Positions 19,313-31,417 of a stretch of DNA of 64,000 nucleotides are shown here, one piece after another. The number at the start of each line of letters is the position of its first letter. Within the stretch, counting starts at the first letter, position 1. The notes under the pieces were generated by a model that saw only the letters and a program-made list of their open reading frames with translations, was not told the origin of the DNA and ran no database searches. Position numbers and translations under genes: made by a program. This DNA comes from an uncultured cyanobacterium (GTDB taxonomy: Bacteria > Cyanobacteriota > Cyanobacteriia > CAKZMO01): NCBI GenBank assembly GCA_963719515.1, contig CAVRCJ010000010.1:96001-160000 (forward strand), in the 5' to 3' direction.

Positions 19313-22300
19313 TCACTCCGCCCCATGAGGTTTCGCCAAGTTGCGGAAGCGGGTGTACTGCTGCTCAAACAGCAGCTTCACGGTGCCTACCGGGCCGTTG
19401 CGGTGTTTGGTGATAATTAGCTCGGCGATGCCGCGATCGGGGCTGTCAGGATTGTAGTACTCATCGCGGTATAGCATCAGGACTAAATCTGCATCCTGCT
19501 CGATAGATCCCGAGTTGTGAGAGACGATGCCGTCCGCCATCCAAGACGACGGCCCTGGAACCGTCAGGTCGTAGACGGTCTCTTGCCCAAGCGGCTCGAT
19601 CGAAACGACCTCATCCCAGAAAATGTCAGAGTTCACGACTTCTTCTAGGTCTGAGCTCTCTAGAATTTCGGCATAGCTAAGCACCGTTTCCCGAGTGGGT
19701 GCGAATTTGAAGTGGGATGAGCCGCCGTAAGACGTTCCTCTTGATGTGGCCATACGGCGATGAGAAATCCCTTGGACTTTCATCTCCTGCTTGACAATAT
19801 CAAAGACTTCAATGGGAAGCGTGTCTCTATTGGGATTTGGCTTGCCTCGGCGTAGAAGCTCAGCCCTGGCTGCTTCAGCAGGCTGTACTCGTGGTGGCAT
19901 ACGATTGGCTACGGCGAGGCGATCGCCCGCTTTAAGCTCCTGAACCTGTCGCCAGCCGTCAAACGTATAGAGGCGGTGCTTGCCGGTGGCTTTGATTTTT
20001 TTACCGCTTGCAGTAGTCAGAGCATAAACGGGCTTTTCGCCAACTTTCCAAATCAAATCGGCTTGAGCTTTCACGAGTCGCCCTTGTTCATTCATGCTGA
20101 CAACTTCAGGTGTTTGACCGACTAGCGCTGCAATAGGTAAACGTCTGCCGTCTGCCAGCCAAACCAACGTATCTTCCGTGACGCACTCCCTCAGGTCAGA
20201 CATCATCGGTCGCTTGTTCGTCCGCGACTCCACCCCTCGACTCAACTGCGACAGGGCAATAATCGGCACGCTCAGCTCCCGCGCCAGCGCCTTGAGCGAT
20301 CGCGTTACCTTAGAAAGCTCCTGCACCCGGTTATCGCTACCGGTGCCCTCCATCAGCTGCAGGTAATCGATCAGCACTAACCCTAAGGCTCCTCCCTGCT
20401 CCGCCTGCAGCCGCCGCGCTTTCGAGCGCATCTCGGTTACTGAAATACCTGCCGTATCATCAATAAAAATGGGGAGCTGAGACAGGGTATTGATGGCGTT
20501 ACCCAGCGGTCCCCACTCGTTTTGCCCCACTCGTCCGCCCCGCAGGCGACCGCTCTCAACTCGGGCCTCGCTGGAGAGCAGGCGGTAGACGAGCTGCTCT
20601 TTGGACATCTCTAGGCTGAAGACCGCTACCGGTAGCTTAGGCGTGGCTCCGGCGATGTTGCGGGCGATGTTGAGCACGAAGCTCGTGTTGTGGACACAGA
20701 TATCGTTGGCGACAAAGTTGTGGGTCTCTGGAATGGTTAAATCGTAAACTTGCTTGATGTCAACAGGCTCAATCGCGACAATTTTGTCCCAGTAAACGTC
20801 GCTGGTGGCAAGATGTTGGAGGTCTTGATTCTCTAAAGCAGTGGCCAGTGCGAAAAGGCGATCGCGGCTCAGCGCCCGCTTACCGACGTGAATATTGCTT
20901 GTTCCCTTTAGTCCGGCCTGGGTTGCGAGAGATTTCCAGGTCTGCTGGCCTTTGGCCTGCTGCAGCGTCTCCCAAATCTCGACGGGAATTAGGTCTCGAT
21001 TGGTTTGATAGCGCCGGTTACTCAGAGCCGCTTTAGCCTTCTCAAGGGCCTGCTCCTTGCCAAAAATCCCGATCTCGTCAATAAAAGTCTTAATCGAAAG
21101 CGCGTCTGTGATGTCGAGCTGGTAAGCAGGACGGCGATGGTCTTGGTACTTCACCGAACGGGTTTTGAGACGAGCAATGACCCCAAACCGCAGCAGCAGG
21201 TGCTGTACCTGTTGGGCCAATTTCTTACAAACCGTTGCAAACCCGAGCTGAACTTGACCACTCGCCAAAACGCTAGCCCAGCCATCGGTAGCAAAAAGGC
21301 GGTTTAAGAAGATTGCGAGCTGTGGCTTTGGTAGCTTAAATACGCAGGCTGGAACCCTCTTCTGATGGGCCGATTTTCCCCATAAGCCATGCTCCTGCAG
21401 CCACAGGGTTACGGAATTCTGACTGTCGGAGACCACAAAAAAGGACGGCGTTCTTGTGCCGCTAGAATCTTCCCGTCGGACCGTTACCCCAGGAAACTCT
21501 AAGGCTGAGTCCACAAACTCGCTTTGGATCGCTGGGTTCTCATTTGTGAATCCCGGTGATGTCCTCGTCAGTGAGCCGTCGCCGATGAAATAGCCCAGCA
21601 GCTTCACCTGGGATTCAGGCAACGTCTCGGTTCCAAAAATAGGTAGGCACCTCGGAACAGCAATTTTTTGCCCTGCCTGCAGGTCTTCTAAGGGTCGCCA
21701 TCCTTGAATAGTCAAAAACGGGTGAGACAGCGTGGTCTCGATAGTCCTTCCCGAGCTTGTCTCGACGCGAAAGACGCGCTTCAAGCCATCATCGACGTAA
21801 GCGCTTGGCTGGGTGAGCTTTAATCGCCAGTCGGTGTCTAAAGTCAGGAGAGAGGCGTTCTGCCCAACGTAAACTTCTTCAATCGTTTTAACGCTCCCGT
21901 CACCCACCACAATTTCAGCGTCAGCGCTGAGGCATTTACCCATGGAGGGACGCCCCGCCGCAATGATCAGATCTGATCGCTGGAATCCCTGGGTCATGGC
22001 GTCTAGGTCGTAAAAGCCAGAGGGAATCCCCGGCAGCACCAAACCCTCGGCCCGATTCTCAATGTCGGCAAAGGTGGAAATCAGAATTTCGGAGGTGGGA
22101 GAAAGCCCCTGGGTGGGCCGGTCTTGGGTGACGGCGAACAGCTGCTGCTCCGCCTGATCGACCACCGTCTCAAGGGTAGAGCGCGTGTCGTAGCCCATCT
22201 GGGCAATCTCATGGCCGGTTTGAATCAGCCGCCGCCGCAGGGCCTTATCGTTGACCAGCTGCGCGTACTGGTCGACGTTGACGGCGCTCACCGTGCGGTC

Positions 22301-22594
22301 CACCAGCTGAATGAGTCGCCCCTGTCCCCCTACCTTTTCTAGGGTGCCGTTGTCTCGAAGTGCGGTGGCAATGCGCATCAGATCCGTCGGCTGGCCTTGG
22401 GCAAACAGCGCTAGAGCCGCTCGGTAGATCTCTTGATGAGCGCCAATATAAAACGATTCGGGGCGCAGGGTATCGATAATGCGGCCCAGCGCCTCGGGGT
22501 CCAGCAAAATACCCCCCAGAATCGCCTCCTCCGCATCAATGTTTTGGGGAGGGAGGCGATCGCTGTAGGACTCAAAAACGGGCTCGCTGACCAT
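19313..22594 (-). CDS. dnaB: Replicative DNA helicase DnaB containing two inteins
   Basis: [65 protein letters not shown]. Confidence 0.98.
19514..20185 (-). mobile_element. DnaB intein 2 (224 aa), no LAGLIDADG motifs
   Basis: Begins CVTEDTLV after SDLRE and ends ADGIVSHN before SGSIEQD; block B TGKHRL. Confidence 0.95.
20687..21934 (-). mobile_element. DnaB intein 1 (416 aa) with LAGLIDADG homing endonuclease, inserted in the Walker A P-loop
   Basis: Begins CLSADAEI after GRPSMGK and ends [12 protein letters not shown] before T. LAGLIDADG blocks [10 protein letters not shown] and [11 protein letters not shown]; block B TLSHPF. Confidence 0.95.
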
Positions 22595-23299: not shown

Positions 23300-23665
23300 C
23301 TAGGTGGCTGGCTGTGGTGCTTCGGAGGGGGGACTATAGCGCCGCCGCTCGGGCCGCCGGGTGCCGCCTGCCATCTCGTATTCTGAGCTCTTGCGGCCAT
23401 AGGCGGCGGCGATCGCGCTGAGCATTCTCTCGGACCGTTCAGCGACCCGCTTTTCGGTGGCTAGCATCTCGTTGTATACGTTGTCGACGTTGGACAGCAG
23501 CCGGTTGTAGGCGTTTTGCTGCAGCCGCATCTCGTTGATCTCGGTTCGAAAGGCGTCGAGGGTGAGGTCGTTGCCGAGGTCGAGATCGACGTCGATGGAT
23601 TCCATGCCGGCAATGCGGCGCTCGGCATTTTGCAGGGTGATGGAGGTGCGTTTGGCGCGTGCCAT
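23300..23665 (-). CDS. Conserved hypothetical all-helical protein (MARxKR...YGRKSSEYEMAGG family)
   Basis: 121 aa with AGAGGA RBS; resembles a recurrent unannotated cyanobacterial family ending YGxDSxEYEMAGGxRKSER (recognised from memory). Confidence 0.85.
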   Translation of the reverse strand: MARAKRTSITLQNAERRIAGMESIDVDLDLGNDLTLDAFRTEINEMRLQQNAYNRLLSNVDNVYNEMLATEKRVAERSERMLSAIAAAYGRKSSEYEMAGGTRRPERRRYSPPSEAPQPAT

Positions 23666-23945: not shown

Positions 23946-24176
23946 CAGCTTTGGAGAACGGCTGAGCTTGTTGGCAGAACTAATTAGCTGCTTGACAGAG
24001 TTGCTGAGCAACTCATTAGAACTGATAGGCTACTTGGCAGAACTGTTAAGCAGCTTGGCAGTTCTGATGGACCGCTGCTGCAAACTTGCAGCCTGCTGTG
24101 ATGACGGTATGAGAACCTATGGCCTACTGCTGGCCAGATTATTGAACGTTTTCGGCAAGCTGGTACTTTGGCCAAT
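23946..24176. repeat. Degenerate 21-bp tandem array, about 11 units
   Basis: Units at 23946 cagctttggagaacggctgag, 23967 cttgttggcagaactaattag, 23988 ctgcttgacagagttgctgag, 24009 caactcattagaactgatagg, 24030 ctacttggcagaactgttaag, 24051 cagcttggcagttctgatgga, followed by decaying units. Confidence 0.8.
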
Positions 24177-24766: not shown

Positions 24767-24895
24767 ACCAAATTTTTGGGGTTGTTCGATCAAGCTGCTA
24801 TCGGTAAACAGCTTCTGAACAGGTAATCTACCGCATTTGGGGCACGGAAGCAAGGGCAGATTTTGTGTCAGCACATACCGGCAAACCAATTGTGC

Positions 24896-25036
24896 GTAGG
24901 GTGGGCACCGCCCACAAAACGTTTACACATGTGGGATAGACCAACGCGCGGGACGGGATACACGGCATGGACAATGTGGGGTGGGTGATAATTCGGTGGG
25001 CAATAAACAATATGTAGTGGGCATTGCCCACCCTAC
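24896..25036. repeat. Inverted pair of GTAG-class REP sequences (REPIN-like)
   Basis: GTAGGGTGGGCACCGCCCAC at 24896-24915 and GTGGGCATTGCCCACCCTAC at 25017-25036; each is GTAG plus a GTGGGC/GCCCAC palindrome. Confidence 0.88.
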
Positions 25037-25554
25037 GGGCATCGACATGCCCAATCGATTCGATAATGTCCGTTATTGACCCATTTTTGAAAACTGGAAT
25101 AGGGCCATTGATGCGGGCAATTCGCCCACCCATGCTTCACCGGGTTGTAGTGAATATAATTGAGGCAGCGGGCCAATTCTTCTTCTGTGCGGATGGTACG
25201 TTCCCAAAAGCGACGCTGCCACACATCGCTTTCGCGGTGCTTTCGCCGGGACTCAGAAATGTCATCAGGCTGAACATTCTTGCCCCTCAGCGACTGAGTG
25301 AATAAGACTTTGATGCGTCCGACTCGTTTTGAGTAGTTGCTGTCGCTATCGGGCAATGTCCAGACGAAATGAATGTGATCGGGCAAAACGACGGCGGCGA
25401 CGATATCGAATGGGTCTTCGGCTTTGATTTGGCTGACGGCTTGGCGGAGGCGAGTTACGTTGTCGGCATGCTTGAAGAGCGGAGCGCGCTGATGGGTAAC
25501 CCAGGTGAGGAAGACGGTGCTACCAGGAATGTAGAGGCGGCGGTAGTTGGGCAT
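25033..25554 (-). mobile_element. REP-associated tyrosine transposase (RAYT, HUH Y1 family)
   Basis: MPNYRR, VVLPDHIH (HUH), VWQRRFWE, NYIHYNPVKHG (catalytic Y), WPYSSF; adjacent REPs. Confidence 0.93.
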
Positions 25555-25667
25555 GCAGGTTATGAGAAACGCTCGACCTGCTTAAGGTGCCCTGACGCAA
25601 GCTCGCCCGACTAACTTTCCTTTTGCTAGATTGTGGGTACAGGAAGATACCGGCAATATCGATGTCT

Positions 25668-25997
25668 ATGGACAACATCCAGCTTGAAATTGAGGGCCAG
25701 GGCGCGATCGCGGCGGCAGAGGACCTGCTGCAGACCGAGGGCATCCAGGGGCAGCTTGAGCCTATGGACGATGAGCCCGAGCGGGATTTAGCGATGGTTA
25801 CCGCGATCGCCACTATCGTCAGCCTGGCGCTGAACGCTATCGAGCTGGCGGAGAAGATTCACGGCTGGTACCGGGCCTATCGCCAGCGCAAGGATGCTGA
25901 CAAACGAATCGAGAAGGTCCTGCTGATTGGCAAGGACGGGCAGCGTATTCTGTTGGCAGATGCTTCGGTGGAGCAGATTCGCCGCATTCTCGAATAG
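25668..25997 (+). CDS. Small protein with central hydrophobic helix, EACC1-like putative partner of the downstream CHAT protease
   Basis: 109 aa: acidic N-part, linker EPERD, hydrophobic LAMVTAIATIVSLALNAIELA, W-containing basic helix, C-terminal GKDGQRILL..SVEQIRRIL; 27 bp from the CHAT gene. The family label is inference. Confidence 0.7.
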   Translation: MDNIQLEIEGQGAIAAAEDLLQTEGIQGQLEPMDDEPERDLAMVTAIATIVSLALNAIELAEKIHGWYRAYRQRKDADKRIEKVLLIGKDGQRILLADASVEQIRRILE

Positions 25998-26024
25998 CCC
26001 TGACCTCTATCGTGCTGCGCCGCC

Positions 26025-29000
26025 ATGGATATGGACATCCTTTACGTTGATCTGCTGCCTGCTGATGACGGCTATGTGACGCTGCGCTATGGAAAAGACC
26101 CTGATGATTGGGCCTCGGCGGACCGGCGACTGGCCCTTAGCGATATTCAAGCGCTGATTGACCACGACAAGCTTTTTTACTTCACCCGTCGCCCCGACTT
26201 TTGTAGTGTAGGTCAGCAGCTTTACGCCTGGCTGGATGGGGAGCAGCGCTGGCTGACGACAGAGATTGAGCGCTGCAGCGCTTCGGAGCTGGTGTTGATG
26301 ATTGCGGCGCGGGGGAAGCTGGCCCACCTGCCTTGGGAAGTGCTGCATGACGGAGACGAGTTTTTGACCCAGGCCATGACCCCTGTGGTGCCGGTGCGCT
26401 GGGTGGAGGGAGCGGCAAAGCCCCAGCCTCCCCAGGCGCGATCGCTCAGCGTGCTGTTCATGGCAACTTCGGTGGTGGGGGAGCAAGCCCTAGATTTTGA
26501 GCAGGAAGAGGCCAAAATTCTTGAAATCACCAACGATTTTCCGCTGAGCCTGCGGGTTGAAGAGAGCGGCTGCGTCACCGAGCTAGAGAAGCTATGGAAG
26601 CGCCACGACGAGGGTAGCTTTGATGTGTTTCACCTGACGGGGCACGCCGGGATTACCAAAGCGGAGCCGCCAACGCCATTCTTTATTACGGAAACTGAAA
26701 CGGGCGATCGCCGCGACGCCACCGCCAAAGATTTGTTTCGCGTTTTCAGGCGCAGACGCCCGCGGCTGGTGTTTCTTTCAGGCTGTCGCACCGGGCAGGC
26801 AGCCCAGGATGGCACAGTCAGCTCCATTGCCCAAGAGCTGGTGTCCTACGGTCTCCCGGCGGTGATGGGCTGGGGGCAGTCCGTGCGCGATCGCGACGCT
26901 ACCCTAGCGGCCCAAAAGCTGTATGAGTTTCTAGCGGCGGGCTATTCCCTGCCGGGGGCCTTTAGCGAAACCATCCAGCACCTGCAGGAAGAAGACGCCC
27001 GCGATTGGCACCTGCTGCGGCTGTACGCCCGCACCGATATGCTGGGGCCGCTGGTGCAAGCCGGTTCAACAGGGGTCTACCTGCCGCCCCTCGAAACGAC
27101 CCAAAGCTACTTTTTAGACGACGAGCAGCAGGTGCGCGTGGCTGGCCCGGACAAGTTTGTGGGGCGGCGACGGCTGCTGCAGCGCTGCCTAGGGCACCTG
27201 CGGGAGCGGGGCAAAGTTGGGGTGTTGCTGCATGGTCTGGGGGGCAACGGCAAGAGCACGGTGGCGGCGCGGCTGCTGGACCGGCTGCCGGGCTACACCC
27301 CCGCCGTGGTCTACCGGCGGTTAGACGAAGCCTCTCTGCTGCGATCGCTAGCGCGACAGGCCACAGACAAAGCGGGCCAGCCCATTCTAGATGCCGACGC
27401 CCCGCTAGAGCAGCGGCTCACCGACTTTTTGCGCTACCACCTGCAGCGGGGGCAGCGGTTTTGCCTGGTGCTGGATGACTTTGAGGCCAACCTGGAGCTG
27501 CTGCCCAACGGCCAGCCCGCCTTCAAGGCAAAGGCCGCCGCCAGCGCTAGCGCCGCCCTTTCCCCCCCAGAGGTGCTGACGGCTCTGATGCGATCGCTCC
27601 GGGCCACGGCAGAGCACCGCCTAATCATCACTAGCCGCTATGAGTTTACGCTGCCGGAGCTGGATTCCTACGTGGCGCGGGCATCGGTGCCGGCGCTGAG
27701 CGGCGCAGACTGGACTAAAAAGTGCGATCGCCTGGACGCCTTTAAGCCCCAGTCTGAGGTGGATCAAGACCTGCAGCAGCAGGCCAAAGACATCGCCAAC
27801 GGCAACCCCCGGCTGCTGGAATGGCTGGACGACGTGTTGCTGGCCCCTGACCTGGATAAGGCCGCGATTCTAGAAGCGATGGCGGCAAAGGAGGATGACT
27901 ACCGGGAAAGCATCTTAGCTGAAGCGCTGCTGGAGCAGCAGGTGCCAGCGGTAAGCCAGCTGCTGGCGCGGGGGCTAATCTATCAGCTTCCGGTGCCGGA
28001 GGCGGCGCTGGCGGCGGTGTGTGATGGGATGGAGAACTTCGCCCAGCATCGCGATCGCGCTGGGGCGCTGGGGCTGCTGGAGCTGAGCCAGATTCAGGGG
28101 GAGCCGCATTACCGGGTGTCGCGGCTGCTCGAAGAGCTGCTGCCCCAGGATGAGGCCACCGAAGCGCGGTGTGCTGCTGCTGCGGAAACGCTGTATGAGG
28201 TGTGGTGGACAGCGGCAAAGTCAGCTTCTGAGGAGCGATTACTGGAGATTCACCGGCTGGCGGTGGCCGGAAAACAGCCGGAAATTGTAGCTGCATTGGG
28301 GAGGGTTCTCACCGACCAGTGGAATACCCACAGCCGCTTTCGCGATATTGTTCGACTCTGTGAAACCAGTAAAACAATTGCGTCAGATGCCCGAGTGATC
28401 TATCCGCTAGCTCAAGCAGAGTTTGCTTTGGGTAATGTTGAGACTGCTCAGAGTCACTATCAAGGAGTTTTGGGACTTCCTAAAGCCGAGGGAGATGAAG
28501 AATATAGAGCCGCCACCCAGCATGAGATAGCGCGCATTTACGCTCAGCAGGGACAGGTACAACAGGCATTGGACTTCTACCACAAATCTCTTGAAGCTAA
28601 TGAAGCGATCGGGAATGTGAAAGGCGAAGCTGCCACCCGGCATGAGATAGCGGGCATCTGTGCTGAGCAGGGATATACGAAACGGGCCCTAGACCTCTAC
28701 AAAAGGTCTCTTAAGGACTTTGAAGTAAGTGGGGATGTGAAAGGCAGAGCTGACGCGATGGCAAATATGGCTACTATCTACGCCCAGCAAGGAGAGATGC
28801 AACAGGCCCTAGACCTCTACCAGCAGTCCTTTGAAAGCAATGAAGCAATTGGGAATGTACAAGGCAAAGCCGCCACGCTGCATCAGATGGCAGGCATCTA
28901 TGCCCAACAGGGAGAGGTGAAACAGGCCCTGGATCTCTACCAGCAGTCCTTTGAAAGCAATGAAGCAATTGGGAATGTACAAGGCAAAGCCGCCACGCTG

Positions 29001-29534
29001 AACAATATGGCTACTCTTACACTTGAGACAGGTGAGCGCGATCGCGCCTTGGAGTTACTAAAACAAACGGTGGAGGCAGTCTTCCAATCTGGAGACTATT
29101 TCAATGCAGTCGTAGTCCTCTCCAATGTCGCCGCCGCCTCTGAAGATGGCAAAATTGCCTACTTCGCCCAGGCCCTCTGGCTTGCCCTGCGAATAGAAAC
29201 GCCCTTGGACAGCCTGATGCGCCGCCTCTCCAATCTCTTCAACGCCCTCCCCAAAGGCGACCCCCTCGAACCCCTCCTCGCCGCCACCGCCCTCTACCAC
29301 TGTGCCCAACAGTCCAACCACCCCAATATCGAAGCCCTGCAAAAGCAGGCCCTCGGCATGCTCGGCTACGTCGCCAGCGCTCAAGGCATCGAAACCCAAG
29401 AAGCCCTACAACCCTGGATGGCCCAAAGCGGCCTCAACGACCCCAGCCAGTTTCTCCCCCGCCTCACCCAGGAACTAGAGGCCCGCATCGGTGGCACCTG
29501 GCTCTTCAACCCAGAGGAGCTGCGACGCCCATAG
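26025..29534 (+). CDS. CHAT (caspase-like) protease - STAND/NB-ARC-like NTPase - TPR protein (NLR-like architecture)
   Basis: LPWEVL, FHLTGHAG (His), LVFLSGCRTG (Cys); FVGRR, GLGGNGKS Walker A, LVLDDFE Walker B, IITSR, GNPRLL; 40-aa TPR repeats at about 28380-29150. Confidence 0.92.
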   Translation: MDMDILYVDLLPADDGYVTLRYGKDPDDWASADRRLALSDIQALIDHDKLFYFTRRPDFCSVGQQLYAWLDGEQRWLTTEIERCSASELVLMIAARGKLAHLPWEVLHDGDEFLTQAMTPVVPVRWVEGAAKPQPPQARSLSVLFMATSVVGEQALDFEQEEAKILEITNDFPLSLRVEESGCVTELEKLWKRHDEGSFDVFHLTGHAGITKAEPPTPFFITETETGDRRDATAKDLFRVFRRRRPRLVFLSGCRTGQAAQDGTVSSIAQELVSYGLPAVMGWGQSVRDRDATLAAQKLYEFLAAGYSLPGAFSETIQHLQEEDARDWHLLRLYARTDMLGPLVQAGSTGVYLPPLETTQSYFLDDEQQVRVAGPDKFVGRRRLLQRCLGHLRERGKVGVLLHGLGGNGKSTVAARLLDRLPGYTPAVVYRRLDEASLLRSLARQATDKAGQPILDADAPLEQRLTDFLRYHLQRGQRFCLVLDDFEANLELLPNGQPAFKAKAAASASAALSPPEVLTALMRSLRATAEHRLIITSRYEFTLPELDSYVARASVPALSGADWTKKCDRLDAFKPQSEVDQDLQQQAKDIANGNPRLLEWLDDVLLAPDLDKAAILEAMAAKEDDYRESILAEALLEQQVPAVSQLLARGLIYQLPVPEAALAAVCDGMENFAQHRDRAGALGLLELSQIQGEPHYRVSRLLEELLPQDEATEARCAAAAETLYEVWWTAAKSASEERLLEIHRLAVAGKQPEIVAALGRVLTDQWNTHSRFRDIVRLCETSKTIASDARVIYPLAQAEFALGNVETAQSHYQGVLGLPKAEGDEEYRAATQHEIARIYAQQGQVQQALDFYHKSLEANEAIGNVKGEAATRHEIAGICAEQGYTKRALDLYKRSLKDFEVSGDVKGRADAMANMATIYAQQGEMQQALDLYQQSFESNEAIGNVQGKAATLHQMAGIYAQQGEVKQALDLYQQSFESNEAIGNVQGKAATLNNMATLTLETGERDRALELLKQTVEAVFQSGDYFNAVVVLSNVAAASEDGKIAYFAQALWLALRIETPLDSLMRRLSNLFNALPKGDPLEPLLAATALYHCAQQSNHPNIEALQKQALGMLGYVASAQGIETQEALQPWMAQSGLNDPSQFLPRLTQELEARIGGTWLFNPEELRRP
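28530..29010 (+). repeat. 120-bp intragenic tandem repeats encoding TPR units
   Basis: 28815-28880 is identical to 28935-29000 (66 bp); weaker copies lie at 120-bp spacing upstream. Confidence 0.9.
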
Positions 29535-29564
29535 ATTATGTCCCGAGTGGCATCCTAGCCGACG

Positions 29565-30521
29565 CTAAATTCCCCACTGCTCCCGATGCCACCGCAACCC
29601 CTCCAAACTCGGCCAACTTCTCTCTTCCCTCGGCAACCCAATCGCCTCTCCCCGAAACGCCCCCATCTCCCGACTCCCCACCGCAGCCTCCTCCGTAAAC
29701 CGCTCCCCCGGCACCAAAATCCGATACCCATCATCTACCCCAAACCACCCCCGATCAAACGCCCAGTGATGGTTCTTACACAGCGCCATCCCGTTCACAA
29801 ACCGATCATCCCGAAACTCCGAAAACGGCTTGATATGCGCCCCATCCACAATATCCTGCCCCTCCACCCCAATAATCCTCAATCGGCAGAACGCGCAGCG
29901 CTGCTCATATAGCGACACCACAATTTTGCGGAACGCCCCATTGCGCACCACAACATTCTCCTCATCCTTCAAATCTTCGACGCTATAGGTCGCGCCCCCC
30001 TCTCGCAGCAGCCCCGCCTTCACCTGCTCAAATTCATCAATCAGCGAAAGCTGCTCTACATCCCGCGATCGCCCATCAAACCAGCTATCCACCAGCACCC
30101 GCAGCAATATCAATCGCTGCCCTGGGTCCTGCAAAATTGCAAACAGCTCCGGGTCCAGCCACGCATACTGCACCATATTTTGAACCGCCCTAACGCCGCG
30201 ACGCCCCAACGTCGTCGCCGTCGTCGCCTCACTATCCGGGTAAAACGACAGGTGCCAAAACTTATCCCCCGTCAAATGCACAAACGGCAGGGAAATATCC
30301 GAGCGGTGATTGCTGCTCACCAAGCTGCGCCAATACTTCAAAAACGTCGAAATTAGCTCCGGTGACAGCGGCACCCGGTTCGCCCGAATCTTGCCCTGCT
30401 CCATCATCTCAATCACCGACATCAGCAGCACAGGCTTGTGCGGCGCAGGCCCGCGCTCCTTGTGCCGGTTCACACTGAGCTTCGCAAACTTCTTGACGTA
30501 GTGTGGCAGGTCTTTCGTCAT
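29565..30521 (-). CDS. HNH restriction endonuclease with N-terminal SBD-like (sulfur-binding) domain
   Basis: APHKPVLLMSV...LPFVHL..DKFW N-domain; RNGAFRKIV..Y...CAFC, AHIKPF, NGMALCKNHHWAFDRG HNH domain. Confidence 0.88.
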   Translation of the reverse strand: MTKDLPHYVKKFAKLSVNRHKERGPAPHKPVLLMSVIEMMEQGKIRANRVPLSPELISTFLKYWRSLVSSNHRSDISLPFVHLTGDKFWHLSFYPDSEATTATTLGRRGVRAVQNMVQYAWLDPELFAILQDPGQRLILLRVLVDSWFDGRSRDVEQLSLIDEFEQVKAGLLREGGATYSVEDLKDEENVVVRNGAFRKIVVSLYEQRCAFCRLRIIGVEGQDIVDGAHIKPFSEFRDDRFVNGMALCKNHHWAFDRGWFGVDDGYRILVPGERFTEEAAVGSREMGAFRGEAIGLPREERSWPSLEGLRWHREQWGI

Positions 30522-30742
30522 CCTGGAGCAGTTCTCAGGCCCAATTTGGCAGCGTCCTTCCCCCAAGTATGGAAAGCCCAAACGCGATCGCCCCCTACCG
30601 TAAAGAAACGTTACAGCTCGGCTTGACCACACCTTGCTGCGCTGACAGCATCCACTACGCGCAGCTTTGATGAATATTCAGGGATTGAACTATCCAGAAT
30701 CAGAGCTACGATTGCTAGCATCACCCCTCCAATGCTTTTGCT

Positions 30743-31090
30743 ATGGTCGCCTTGCCGTCACTAGAAACCAACATTCATTTAGCGAATAATCTGAAACAGG
30801 TTTCCGTCAATCCCGAGCAGCTAGACAAACTCTGCCGAGAACACCCGATTCGTAAGCTTTCGCTCTTTGGCTCCATCCTACGGGCCGACTTCACGGGCAG
30901 CAGCGATGTCGATTTTCTAGTTGAGTTCAACCCAGAGGCTAAGATTGGCTACTTCAAGCTAGTTCAAATGGAGCAAGAACTCACTGAACTTGTTGGCCGT
31001 AAGGCTGATCTCCGTACACCCGGCGAATTGAGCCACTACTTCCGCCAAAACGTCCTCAACGAGGCGATCGCTCTGTATGTCAAAGATTGA
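30743..31090 (+). CDS. MNT (minimal nucleotidyltransferase) antitoxin
   Basis: LSLFGSILRADF..SDVDFLVEF (GSx10DxD), GRKADL. Confidence 0.92.
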   Translation: MVALPSLETNIHLANNLKQVSVNPEQLDKLCREHPIRKLSLFGSILRADFTGSSDVDFLVEFNPEAKIGYFKLVQMEQELTELVGRKADLRTPGELSHYFRQNVLNEAIALYVKD

Positions 31091-31417
31091 CGACCAAACC
31101 CGGCTTCGCCATATGCTGGATGCGGCTCAAAAAGTAAGCCAGTACATTCAACCCGAGACTCGGCATCCCTTGAAAAGGACGAAAAACTTGCCTTAGCGCT
31201 CGTCCGCCTGCTTGAGATCATCGGCGAGGCAGCGGCAAATGTGAGTCAAAAGAAGAAGGCTGCGCTTCCTCAAATTCCCTGGAAGCTGCTAACTGGAATG
31301 CGAAATCGAATCGTTCACGCATACTTTGATGTTGACTATGACATTGTCTGGGATACCGCGACTGACGATATTCCCGTGCTTGTCTCCCAATTGAAAAGCG
31401 CCCTTGCCAAAAGCTAA
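31077..31417 (+). pseudogene. HEPN/DUF86 (HepT-like) RNase toxin with a 1-nt deletion near 31162 (real or sequencing error)
   Basis: ATG 31077 gives MSKIDDQTRLRHMLDAA..ETR. Restoring one G gives ASLEKDEKLALALVRLLEIIGEAA..IPWKLLTGMRNRIVHAYFDVD..SALAKS* with Rx4H motif. Span is 341 nt. Confidence 0.88.

Follow-up and report, generated by a model that had tools for sequence, protein, structure and literature searches.

A small EACC1-like gene paired with a CHAT-STAND-TPR protease gene in cyanobacteria: a probable two-gene protease-effector module

We analyzed a stretch of 64,000 nucleotides (nt) from an uncultured cyanobacterium (assembly GCA_963719515.1, contig CAVRCJ010000010.1, positions 96,001 to 160,000; hereafter the window, in whose coordinates positions are given). 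In this window, a gene for a protein of 109 amino acids (aa) directly precedes a gene for a protein of 1169 aa that combines a CHAT protease, a STAND-type NTPase and TPRs. The two genes are a real unit of cyanobacteria. By analogy with the EACC1 protein of Ktedonobacter racemifer (KrEACC1), the pair probably forms an EACC1-type suicide module of two genes, for a protease and its effector, with a CHAT protease of the Csx29/separase type. The mechanism described for KrEACC1 would best explain the pair, since gene order, size and anatomy are shared.

The gene pair and its linkage

Both open reading frames (ORFs) lie on the forward strand, the small one at 25668..25997 and the large one at 26025..29534, separated by 27 nt, exactly as described in an earlier note made from the sequence alone. 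The large gene of the closest relative starts at the second methionine (position 26031 of the window), so that the large protein may instead be 1167 aa long. The nearest relative of the small gene, found in a cyanobacterial metagenome-assembled genome, encodes a protein with 89% identity, and the 29 synonymous against 12 non-synonymous codon changes between the two indicate purifying selection. Together with the 133 representatives obtained in a profile-free search with the small protein (E ≤ 0.001, a few long repeat proteins left out), these changes identify the small ORF as a real gene. Scans for promoters and terminators gave counts at chance level.

The tight linkage to a protease gene that the earlier note anticipated was found in every sample. 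In a scan of one genome per species, in which the best 80 of 216 small-gene relatives were kept, a CHAT homologue lies within 6 kb at 77 of the 80 loci, downstream on the same strand in 76 and divergently oriented in one (L002). Three loci have no CHAT gene, and in one of these the sequence ends 260 nt past the small gene. In a second sample of 301 genomes, drawn across the cyanobacterial phylum, the small family was matched in 39, several times as fragments or weak hits. Among a further 30 loci from this sample, 26 have a CHAT gene within 1.5 kb, and the remaining four are at a contig end or have split or partial small genes. Conversely, an alignment of the CHAT domains matched 30 of the 301 genomes at E ≤ 1e-40, and a small gene is located directly upstream at all 29 places with E ≤ 1.3e-121 (one of them partial, at a contig end). 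As this alignment was built from paired genes, its top-scoring group is bound to be the paired clade.

The closest relative shares only positions 25615-29539 with the window and sits between RecQ-like and Mrp-like genes (named by reading), so the pair moves as a unit. The host genome contains 22 CHAT matches and two small genes, both in front of this CHAT-STAND subtype. At the second pair (G000:C3:789579-792331; L085, L128), the small protein is 42% and the CHAT module 45% identical to those of the window, and the partner protein ends at 837 aa and looks truncated. Divergence of the small genes correlates with that of their partner genes (Mantel rho 0.84), which is not proof of co-evolution because kin share both genes.

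Some relatives depart from this arrangement. On the Nostoc punctiforme plasmids pNPUN01 and pNPUN02 (L083, L084), the partner has a GUN4-like C-terminal domain instead of TPRs and the upstream small gene is annotated ParG; these loci are tractable, named models. At five loci (L025, L034, L035, L051, and L057), toxin-antitoxin- or DUF433-like small genes (named by reading) stand between the members of the pair. A small-gene homologue with an aberrant C-terminus is located directly 3' of a Peptidase_C14 caspase gene (L151:4700-6139, G180:C6), with no CHAT gene within the 8 kb retrieved. In one protein of 368 aa (P0064), the small-protein domain forms the C-terminus (residues 268-366), without a Pfam match.

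Domain architecture and predicted structure of the two proteins

The large protein starts with a CHAT module (26025..27059), comprising an N-terminal alpha/beta part and a caspase-fold domain with an intact catalytic dyad, His207 (codon 26643-26645) in the motif HLTGH and Cys254 (codon 26784-26786) in the motif SGC. Pfam CHAT (PF12770) matches aa 62-326 with E 1.5e-19 (71 bits against a cut-off of 24). The STAND-type NTPase (27153..27884) contains the Walker A motif GLGGNGKS (27234-27257), the Walker B motif LVLDDFE and a GNP motif; AAA_16 matches aa 377-509, and a match to NB-ARC is weak (E 0.002, below cut-off). It is followed by a TPR array of about six 40-aa units (28392..29114), with TPR matches in Pfam. 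Thus the dyad and all five motifs that had been read from the translation are present, in the effector-NTPase-repeat layout with Walker A, Walker B and GxP that characterizes STAND/NLR-like proteins.

Structural modeling of residues 1-350 (predicted local distance difference test score, pLDDT, 87.8) places the protease with the Csx29/separase-type CHAT proteins of the caspase-superfamily fold. The model matches Csx29 over its whole length (Z 23.5, root-mean-square deviation [rmsd] 3.4 over 296 residues), as it does separase (Z 21.3, rmsd 3.6 over 294 residues), and its catalytic half matches SAVED-CHAT (Z 21.1), against Z ≤ 12.5 for caspases and metacaspases. In the PDB, neither sequence nor profile searches returned a significant match for the CHAT module, the NTPase or the small family.

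Complete genes account for 49 of the 77 partners; 12 others are cut short by a contig end, and 16 are disrupted, some of them perhaps through assembly errors. No partner ORF spanning the catalytic region has a substitution of the histidine or the cysteine; the invariance of His207 and Cys254 in one alignment (A3) is discounted, because that alignment was filtered on these motifs. TPRs were found in 58 of 60 C-terminal regions scanned, and complete partner proteins range from 727 to 1516 aa.

The sensor region is variable. The first 700 aa are 82-91% identical to the closest relative, and identity drops to 56% and 49% over aa 701-900, a hypervariable patch at the start of the sensor region (28125..28724). 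The GC content at third codon positions, 0.70-0.78 in other parts of the gene, falls to 0.51-0.52 over aa 701-1030, and the TPR array contains a 120-nt tandem repeat of 4.1 copies (28508-29000). These three features suggest that the sensor segment was swapped or evolves fast. The C-terminal 139-aa region (29115..29531) belongs to no known family and is present in only 3 of the 46 long partner proteins compared.

The small protein (25668..25997) is predicted to consist of a beta-alpha-beta N-terminal part, an acidic loop, a hydrophobic segment, an amphipathic helix, a beta-hairpin and a last helix. In the structural model (mean pLDDT 87.6), a strand (residues 4-9), a helix (13-21) and a second strand (27-33) precede the loop, which has the lowest confidence of the model (mean pLDDT 63 over residues 31-40). 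The C-terminal part is modeled as a strand (45-51), the amphipathic helix (57-72, predicted to end in a conserved Trp67), two strands (83-87 and 93-95) and the last helix, and the strands of both parts combine in a sheet. Fold searches returned common ferredoxin-like folds (best Z 7.4, rmsd 2.5, 79 residues), and Foldseek gave no match at E ≤ 0.001. The prediction is thus of a soluble, closed, ferredoxin-like protein in which a flexible loop leads into the hydrophobic segment.

The earlier note had described an acidic N-terminal part followed by a long hydrophobic helix. The acidity is confirmed by a net charge of -11 over residues 1-40, with +3 over residues 41-109, and the hydrophobicity by a best 19-residue hydropathy window that starts at residue 43 (mean 1.84). 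One long helix is not what the model predicts: it divides the segment between the beta-strand and the amphipathic helix. Because the segment is placed within the fold, it is predicted to lie inside a soluble domain, and the idea of a pre-formed membrane helix is not supported. The segment (residues 41-60, 25788..25847) is nonetheless a candidate membrane-inserting element by its hydropathy and the consensus of the family, IATIVGIxxG, which is rich in Gly, Ala and Thr; the segment of the window's own protein lacks Gly and has Ser, Leu and Asn at the Gly positions.

The acidic loop (residues 33-40, 25764..25787) ends in Arg39-Asp40, the predicted cleavage site on the basis of low pLDDT and conservation. 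Among 108 homologues (full-length proteins picked from the search matches), the loop is variable except at its end, where position 39 is K/R in 96% and position 40 is E/D in 72%; the [K/R][E/D] pair is present in all 68 CHAT-linked small proteins examined. That this pair is conserved while the rest of the loop varies suggests a cut site. Conservation of a basic residue just before the acidic one suggests a basic P1, and cleavage after Arg39 is more likely, since K/R is the best-conserved residue of the loop and the loop of the window reads E-x-x-R, the separase motif; cleavage after Asp40, as in KrEACC1, is possible. In separase, Asp2151 binds the P1 arginine of this motif (PMC9729208). Of 67 aligned CHAT domains, 66 have an acidic residue at position 289, after a conserved motif with Trp283. 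Asp289 may be equivalent to the separase residue, by its motif and not by alignment. A complex prediction for the CHAT module and the small protein scored 0.30 against a mark of 0.32 and was used neither way.

Relation to EACC1 systems and proposed activation by cleavage

EACC1 (PF19953, profile length 107, gathering cut-off 23.6 bits) is the commonest Pfam match of the family, with 23 of the 108 homologues at E ≤ 1 (best E 3.4e-4); the family ranked second has matches in 10 members, confined to a short stretch. A rescan of 27 proteins, mostly chosen for their EACC1 match, gave scores of 13-21 bits for 24 of them. These matches follow the profile collinearly, and the best cover it from positions 13-22 to 103-106. 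A search of the Atlas gave 30 hits, 24 without a common family and six with EACC1; when the search was limited to named clusters, EACC1 occurred among the members of 27 of the 30 (top score 0.92), at a share of 10-30% in the three clusters for which it was shown. The small protein fails the formal Pfam test, yet these sub-threshold matches and the Atlas clusters suggest that it is very probably a divergent, remote branch of EACC1, and only in this remote sense is the EACC1-like assignment of the earlier note upheld.

KrEACC1 is cut by its partner caspase-Avs12, at Asp49 according to the authors' model; toxicity is confined to the C-terminal fragment, and liposomes are disrupted by the cleaved protein alone (Evans et al., 2025, PMC12642450). 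As in the window, a small gene (114 aa versus 109 aa) lies upstream of a gene for a cysteine protease-STAND-sensor protein. By eye, the loop ends in an aspartate at position 49 in KrEACC1 and 40 in the window protein, followed by a hydrophobic stretch, with a tryptophan 24 and 27 residues further on, respectively. In the model of KrEACC1, too, the N-terminal piece forms a sheet with two C-terminal strands. The two systems differ in their protease, as KrAvs12 is described as caspase-like and has no CHAT-type motifs by eye, whereas that of the window is a Pfam CHAT with the Csx29/separase-type fold. Unlike KrEACC1, the window family has the conserved K/R before the acidic residue and stays below the Pfam cut-off.

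EACC1 was proposed earlier as a membrane-associated regulator of its protease (Kaur et al., 2020, PMC7159879). That system resembles the window pair in its 5' small gene with one hydrophobic segment rich in small residues between short alpha and beta elements, a feature which fits the family, and in its 3' gene for an N-terminal caspase-superfamily peptidase with variable C-terminal domains, including STAND and repeats. It is described as common among actinobacteria and scattered in proteobacteria, its C-terminal domains being of up to 50 types, whereas the window clade occurs mainly in cyanobacteria. Here the partner is nearly always CHAT-STAND-TPR (58 of 60 C-termini) or, on two Nostoc plasmids, GUN4-like. 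The CHAT-paired cyanobacterial clade is not described in the accessible parts of the EACC1 literature (Kaur 2020, Kaur 2021, Evans 2025, and a ParA preprint that mentions EACC1 once), and the Nostoc accessions of the pair are absent from the searchable, incomplete supplementary data of the EACC1 and STAND papers. As Evans et al. note that their effectors occur in cyanobacteria (PMC12642450), their PSI-BLAST set may already include the clade. The literature found describes no substrate for this CHAT subtype and no experiments on any member of the pair family.

The fold of the N-terminal module is shared throughout with Csx29/Csx30 (Craspase), SAVED-CHAT/PCaspase and separase, in which a sensor activates the protease and a dedicated partner is cut. 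The window system differs from these in having a fused STAND NTPase, with no CRISPR effector or cyclic-nucleotide sensor, and a predicted pore former as its substrate. Bacterial gasdermins and their caspase-like or CHAT proteases follow the activation logic proposed here, in that a membrane toxin encoded next door is kept latent until the protease removes its inhibitory part; the small protein of the window has only 109 aa, its inhibitory piece would be N-terminal, and no gasdermin is among its listed sequence or fold matches. Pepco and Trypco are absent from the first 25 of the 84 Pfam families listed for the 108 members. Their activation is described as removal of a C-terminal tail from a beta-barrel, which the helix-rich anatomy and N-terminal loop of the small protein do not fit.

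We propose that the TPRs would bind an invader protein, probably from a phage, upon which the STAND domain would oligomerize and switch on the CHAT domain. This would cut the small protein within the loop at residues 33-40, after Arg39 more likely than after Asp40. Once the acidic N-terminal piece, with its net charge of -11, is gone, the hydrophobic segment of a slightly basic C-terminal fragment of about 70 residues would be exposed, and this fragment may then oligomerize in the membrane and kill the infected cell. That linker cleavage could free a membrane-active C-terminal fragment, as the earlier note supposed, agrees with what Evans et al. (2025) describe for the Ktedonobacter EACC1. A more specific picture can be offered only tentatively: an unannotated branch of EACC1, found mainly in cyanobacteria, may be the dedicated substrate of separase-type CHAT NLRs, cut in its acidic loop after Arg or Lys, with a core strand refolding into a pore and a TPR sensor renewed by segment swapping.

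Several observations weigh against the module as proposed. No member of the small family reaches the EACC1 cut-off (best 21 bits versus 23.6), and the small protein of the window has no EACC1 match at E ≤ 1 in a Pfam scan, nor a significant match in Pfam, PADLOC or NCBIfam. For the large protein, PADLOC (2023) returns a generic TPR model only. In a sister CHAT-STAND clade (L143, L144, and L146-L150), whose matches to the CHAT alignment are weaker, none of seven proteins has an adjacent small gene and the dyad is kept in six (lost in L150), so proteases of this kind can occur with no effector gene beside them. In addition, the recurrent neighbors of the pair are housekeeping-type genes, common to 12-21 of the 80 loci, and give no defense-island signal.

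The first of these observations raises the alternative that the small protein is no homologue of EACC1 at all, but belongs to a family of separate origin whose size and hydrophobic segment came to resemble those of EACC1 by convergence. Every Pfam match to EACC1 is indeed below the cut-off, 85 of the 108 members have none at E ≤ 1, and the ferredoxin-like arrangement is common, with a best Z of only 7.4. We nevertheless consider convergence very unlikely, given that the matches are collinear and the best run along nearly the whole profile, that the second-ranking family covers fewer members and a short stretch only, that the Atlas independently leads to EACC1-bearing clusters, and that EACC1 systems have this gene order and this class of partner.

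The sister clade bears on a second alternative, in which the CHAT protease acts on other substrates, to kill or to signal, and is itself regulated by the small protein as a membrane-associated sensor, anchor or inhibitor. The existence of proteases with an intact dyad and no small gene would suit this role, which is that proposed for EACC1 by Kaur et al. (PMC7159879), and the correlated divergence of the two genes suits any partnership, confounded as it is by kinship. However, the sole EACC1 tested is a substrate and a toxic effector (PMC12642450), the [K/R][E/D] pair in the variable loop resembles a cut site, and the model is a soluble closed fold and not a membrane anchor. A regulatory role is therefore rather unlikely, and a latent effector released by cleavage remains the preferred reading.

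Genomic context, distribution, and implications

Around the pair, the earlier note had seen a defense island in a neighboring HNH nuclease and a toxin-antitoxin pair. An HNH nuclease gene related to phosphorothioated-DNA-binding restriction endonucleases is present downstream (29565-30632, reverse strand; NF045808, 97 bits against a cut-off of 180), and so is an MNT antitoxin gene. The HEPN/DUF86-like toxin gene that follows it (approximately 31077-31415) is frameshifted in the assembly, its start and the part bearing RNRIVHAY being in different frames. The HNH gene, the MNT gene and a REP-associated transposase gene recur at none of the 80 related loci. As no neighbor in the window recurs and the HEPN toxin is frameshifted, the argument from a defense island fails and was rejected.

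Other features were noted in the same part of the window. The REP-associated tyrosine transposase (24895-25554) matches NF047646 above cut-off, and a 21-nt inverted repeat pair (24895-24915 and 25017-25037) lies at its 3' end. A DnaB helicase gene (1093 aa, 19313-22594, reverse strand) seems to hold two inteins, as read from the translation. A gene for a coiled-coil-like protein of 121 aa (23300-23665, reverse strand) lies beside a 21-nt tandem repeat (23971-24068), and a gene resembling it is found upstream of the orphan CHAT-STAND gene in L148.

The small family is unevenly distributed over the 301-genome sample, occurring in 20 of 35 genomes of one family (f7), with two weak matches in 165 genomes of the last-listed families. 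No relative of the pair was found in the viral contigs searched, and two metagenome scans with actinobacterial-type members found nothing. This distribution leaves room for a third alternative, in which cleavage proceeds as proposed and the trigger is not a phage: cell death of filamentous cyanobacteria that is induced by stress, developmental or triggered by non-self. Besides the concentration in one family and the viral contigs without a relative, a chromosomal housekeeping context common to many Nostoc loci, with no recurrent defense neighbors, is consistent with such a trigger, and stress sensing has been raised for EACC1-DnaK fusions (PMC12642450). Against it stand the fast turnover of the sensor, the frequent decay of the genes and their patchiness, which are typical of an arms race, and the finding that thirteen further STAND families sensed phage proteins when tested in E. 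coli (PMC13581612). We regard a trigger other than phage as quite unlikely; the patchy distribution, the 16 of 77 disrupted partners and the wide range of partner lengths (727-1516 aa) fit a fast-turnover conflict system.

With one EACC1 already known to act by this general mechanism, the proposed mode of action is only moderately surprising. What the pair would add is the extension of the EACC1 pore-former module to cyanobacteria, where not one of 201 genomes sampled has a match to the Pfam model above cut-off and the small family is matched in 39 of 301, and the joining of EACC1 to a different class of protease, CHAT, with a fast-changing TPR sensor. CHAT proteases are numerous in cyanobacterial genomes, and for one subtype of them the pair offers testable candidates for the substrate, for a cut site of two residues and for the toxic fragment. 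If the more specific picture above is correct, filamentous cyanobacteria would have an inflammasome-like pathway for the sacrifice of single cells, with a variable repertoire of receptors, which may answer to more than phage.

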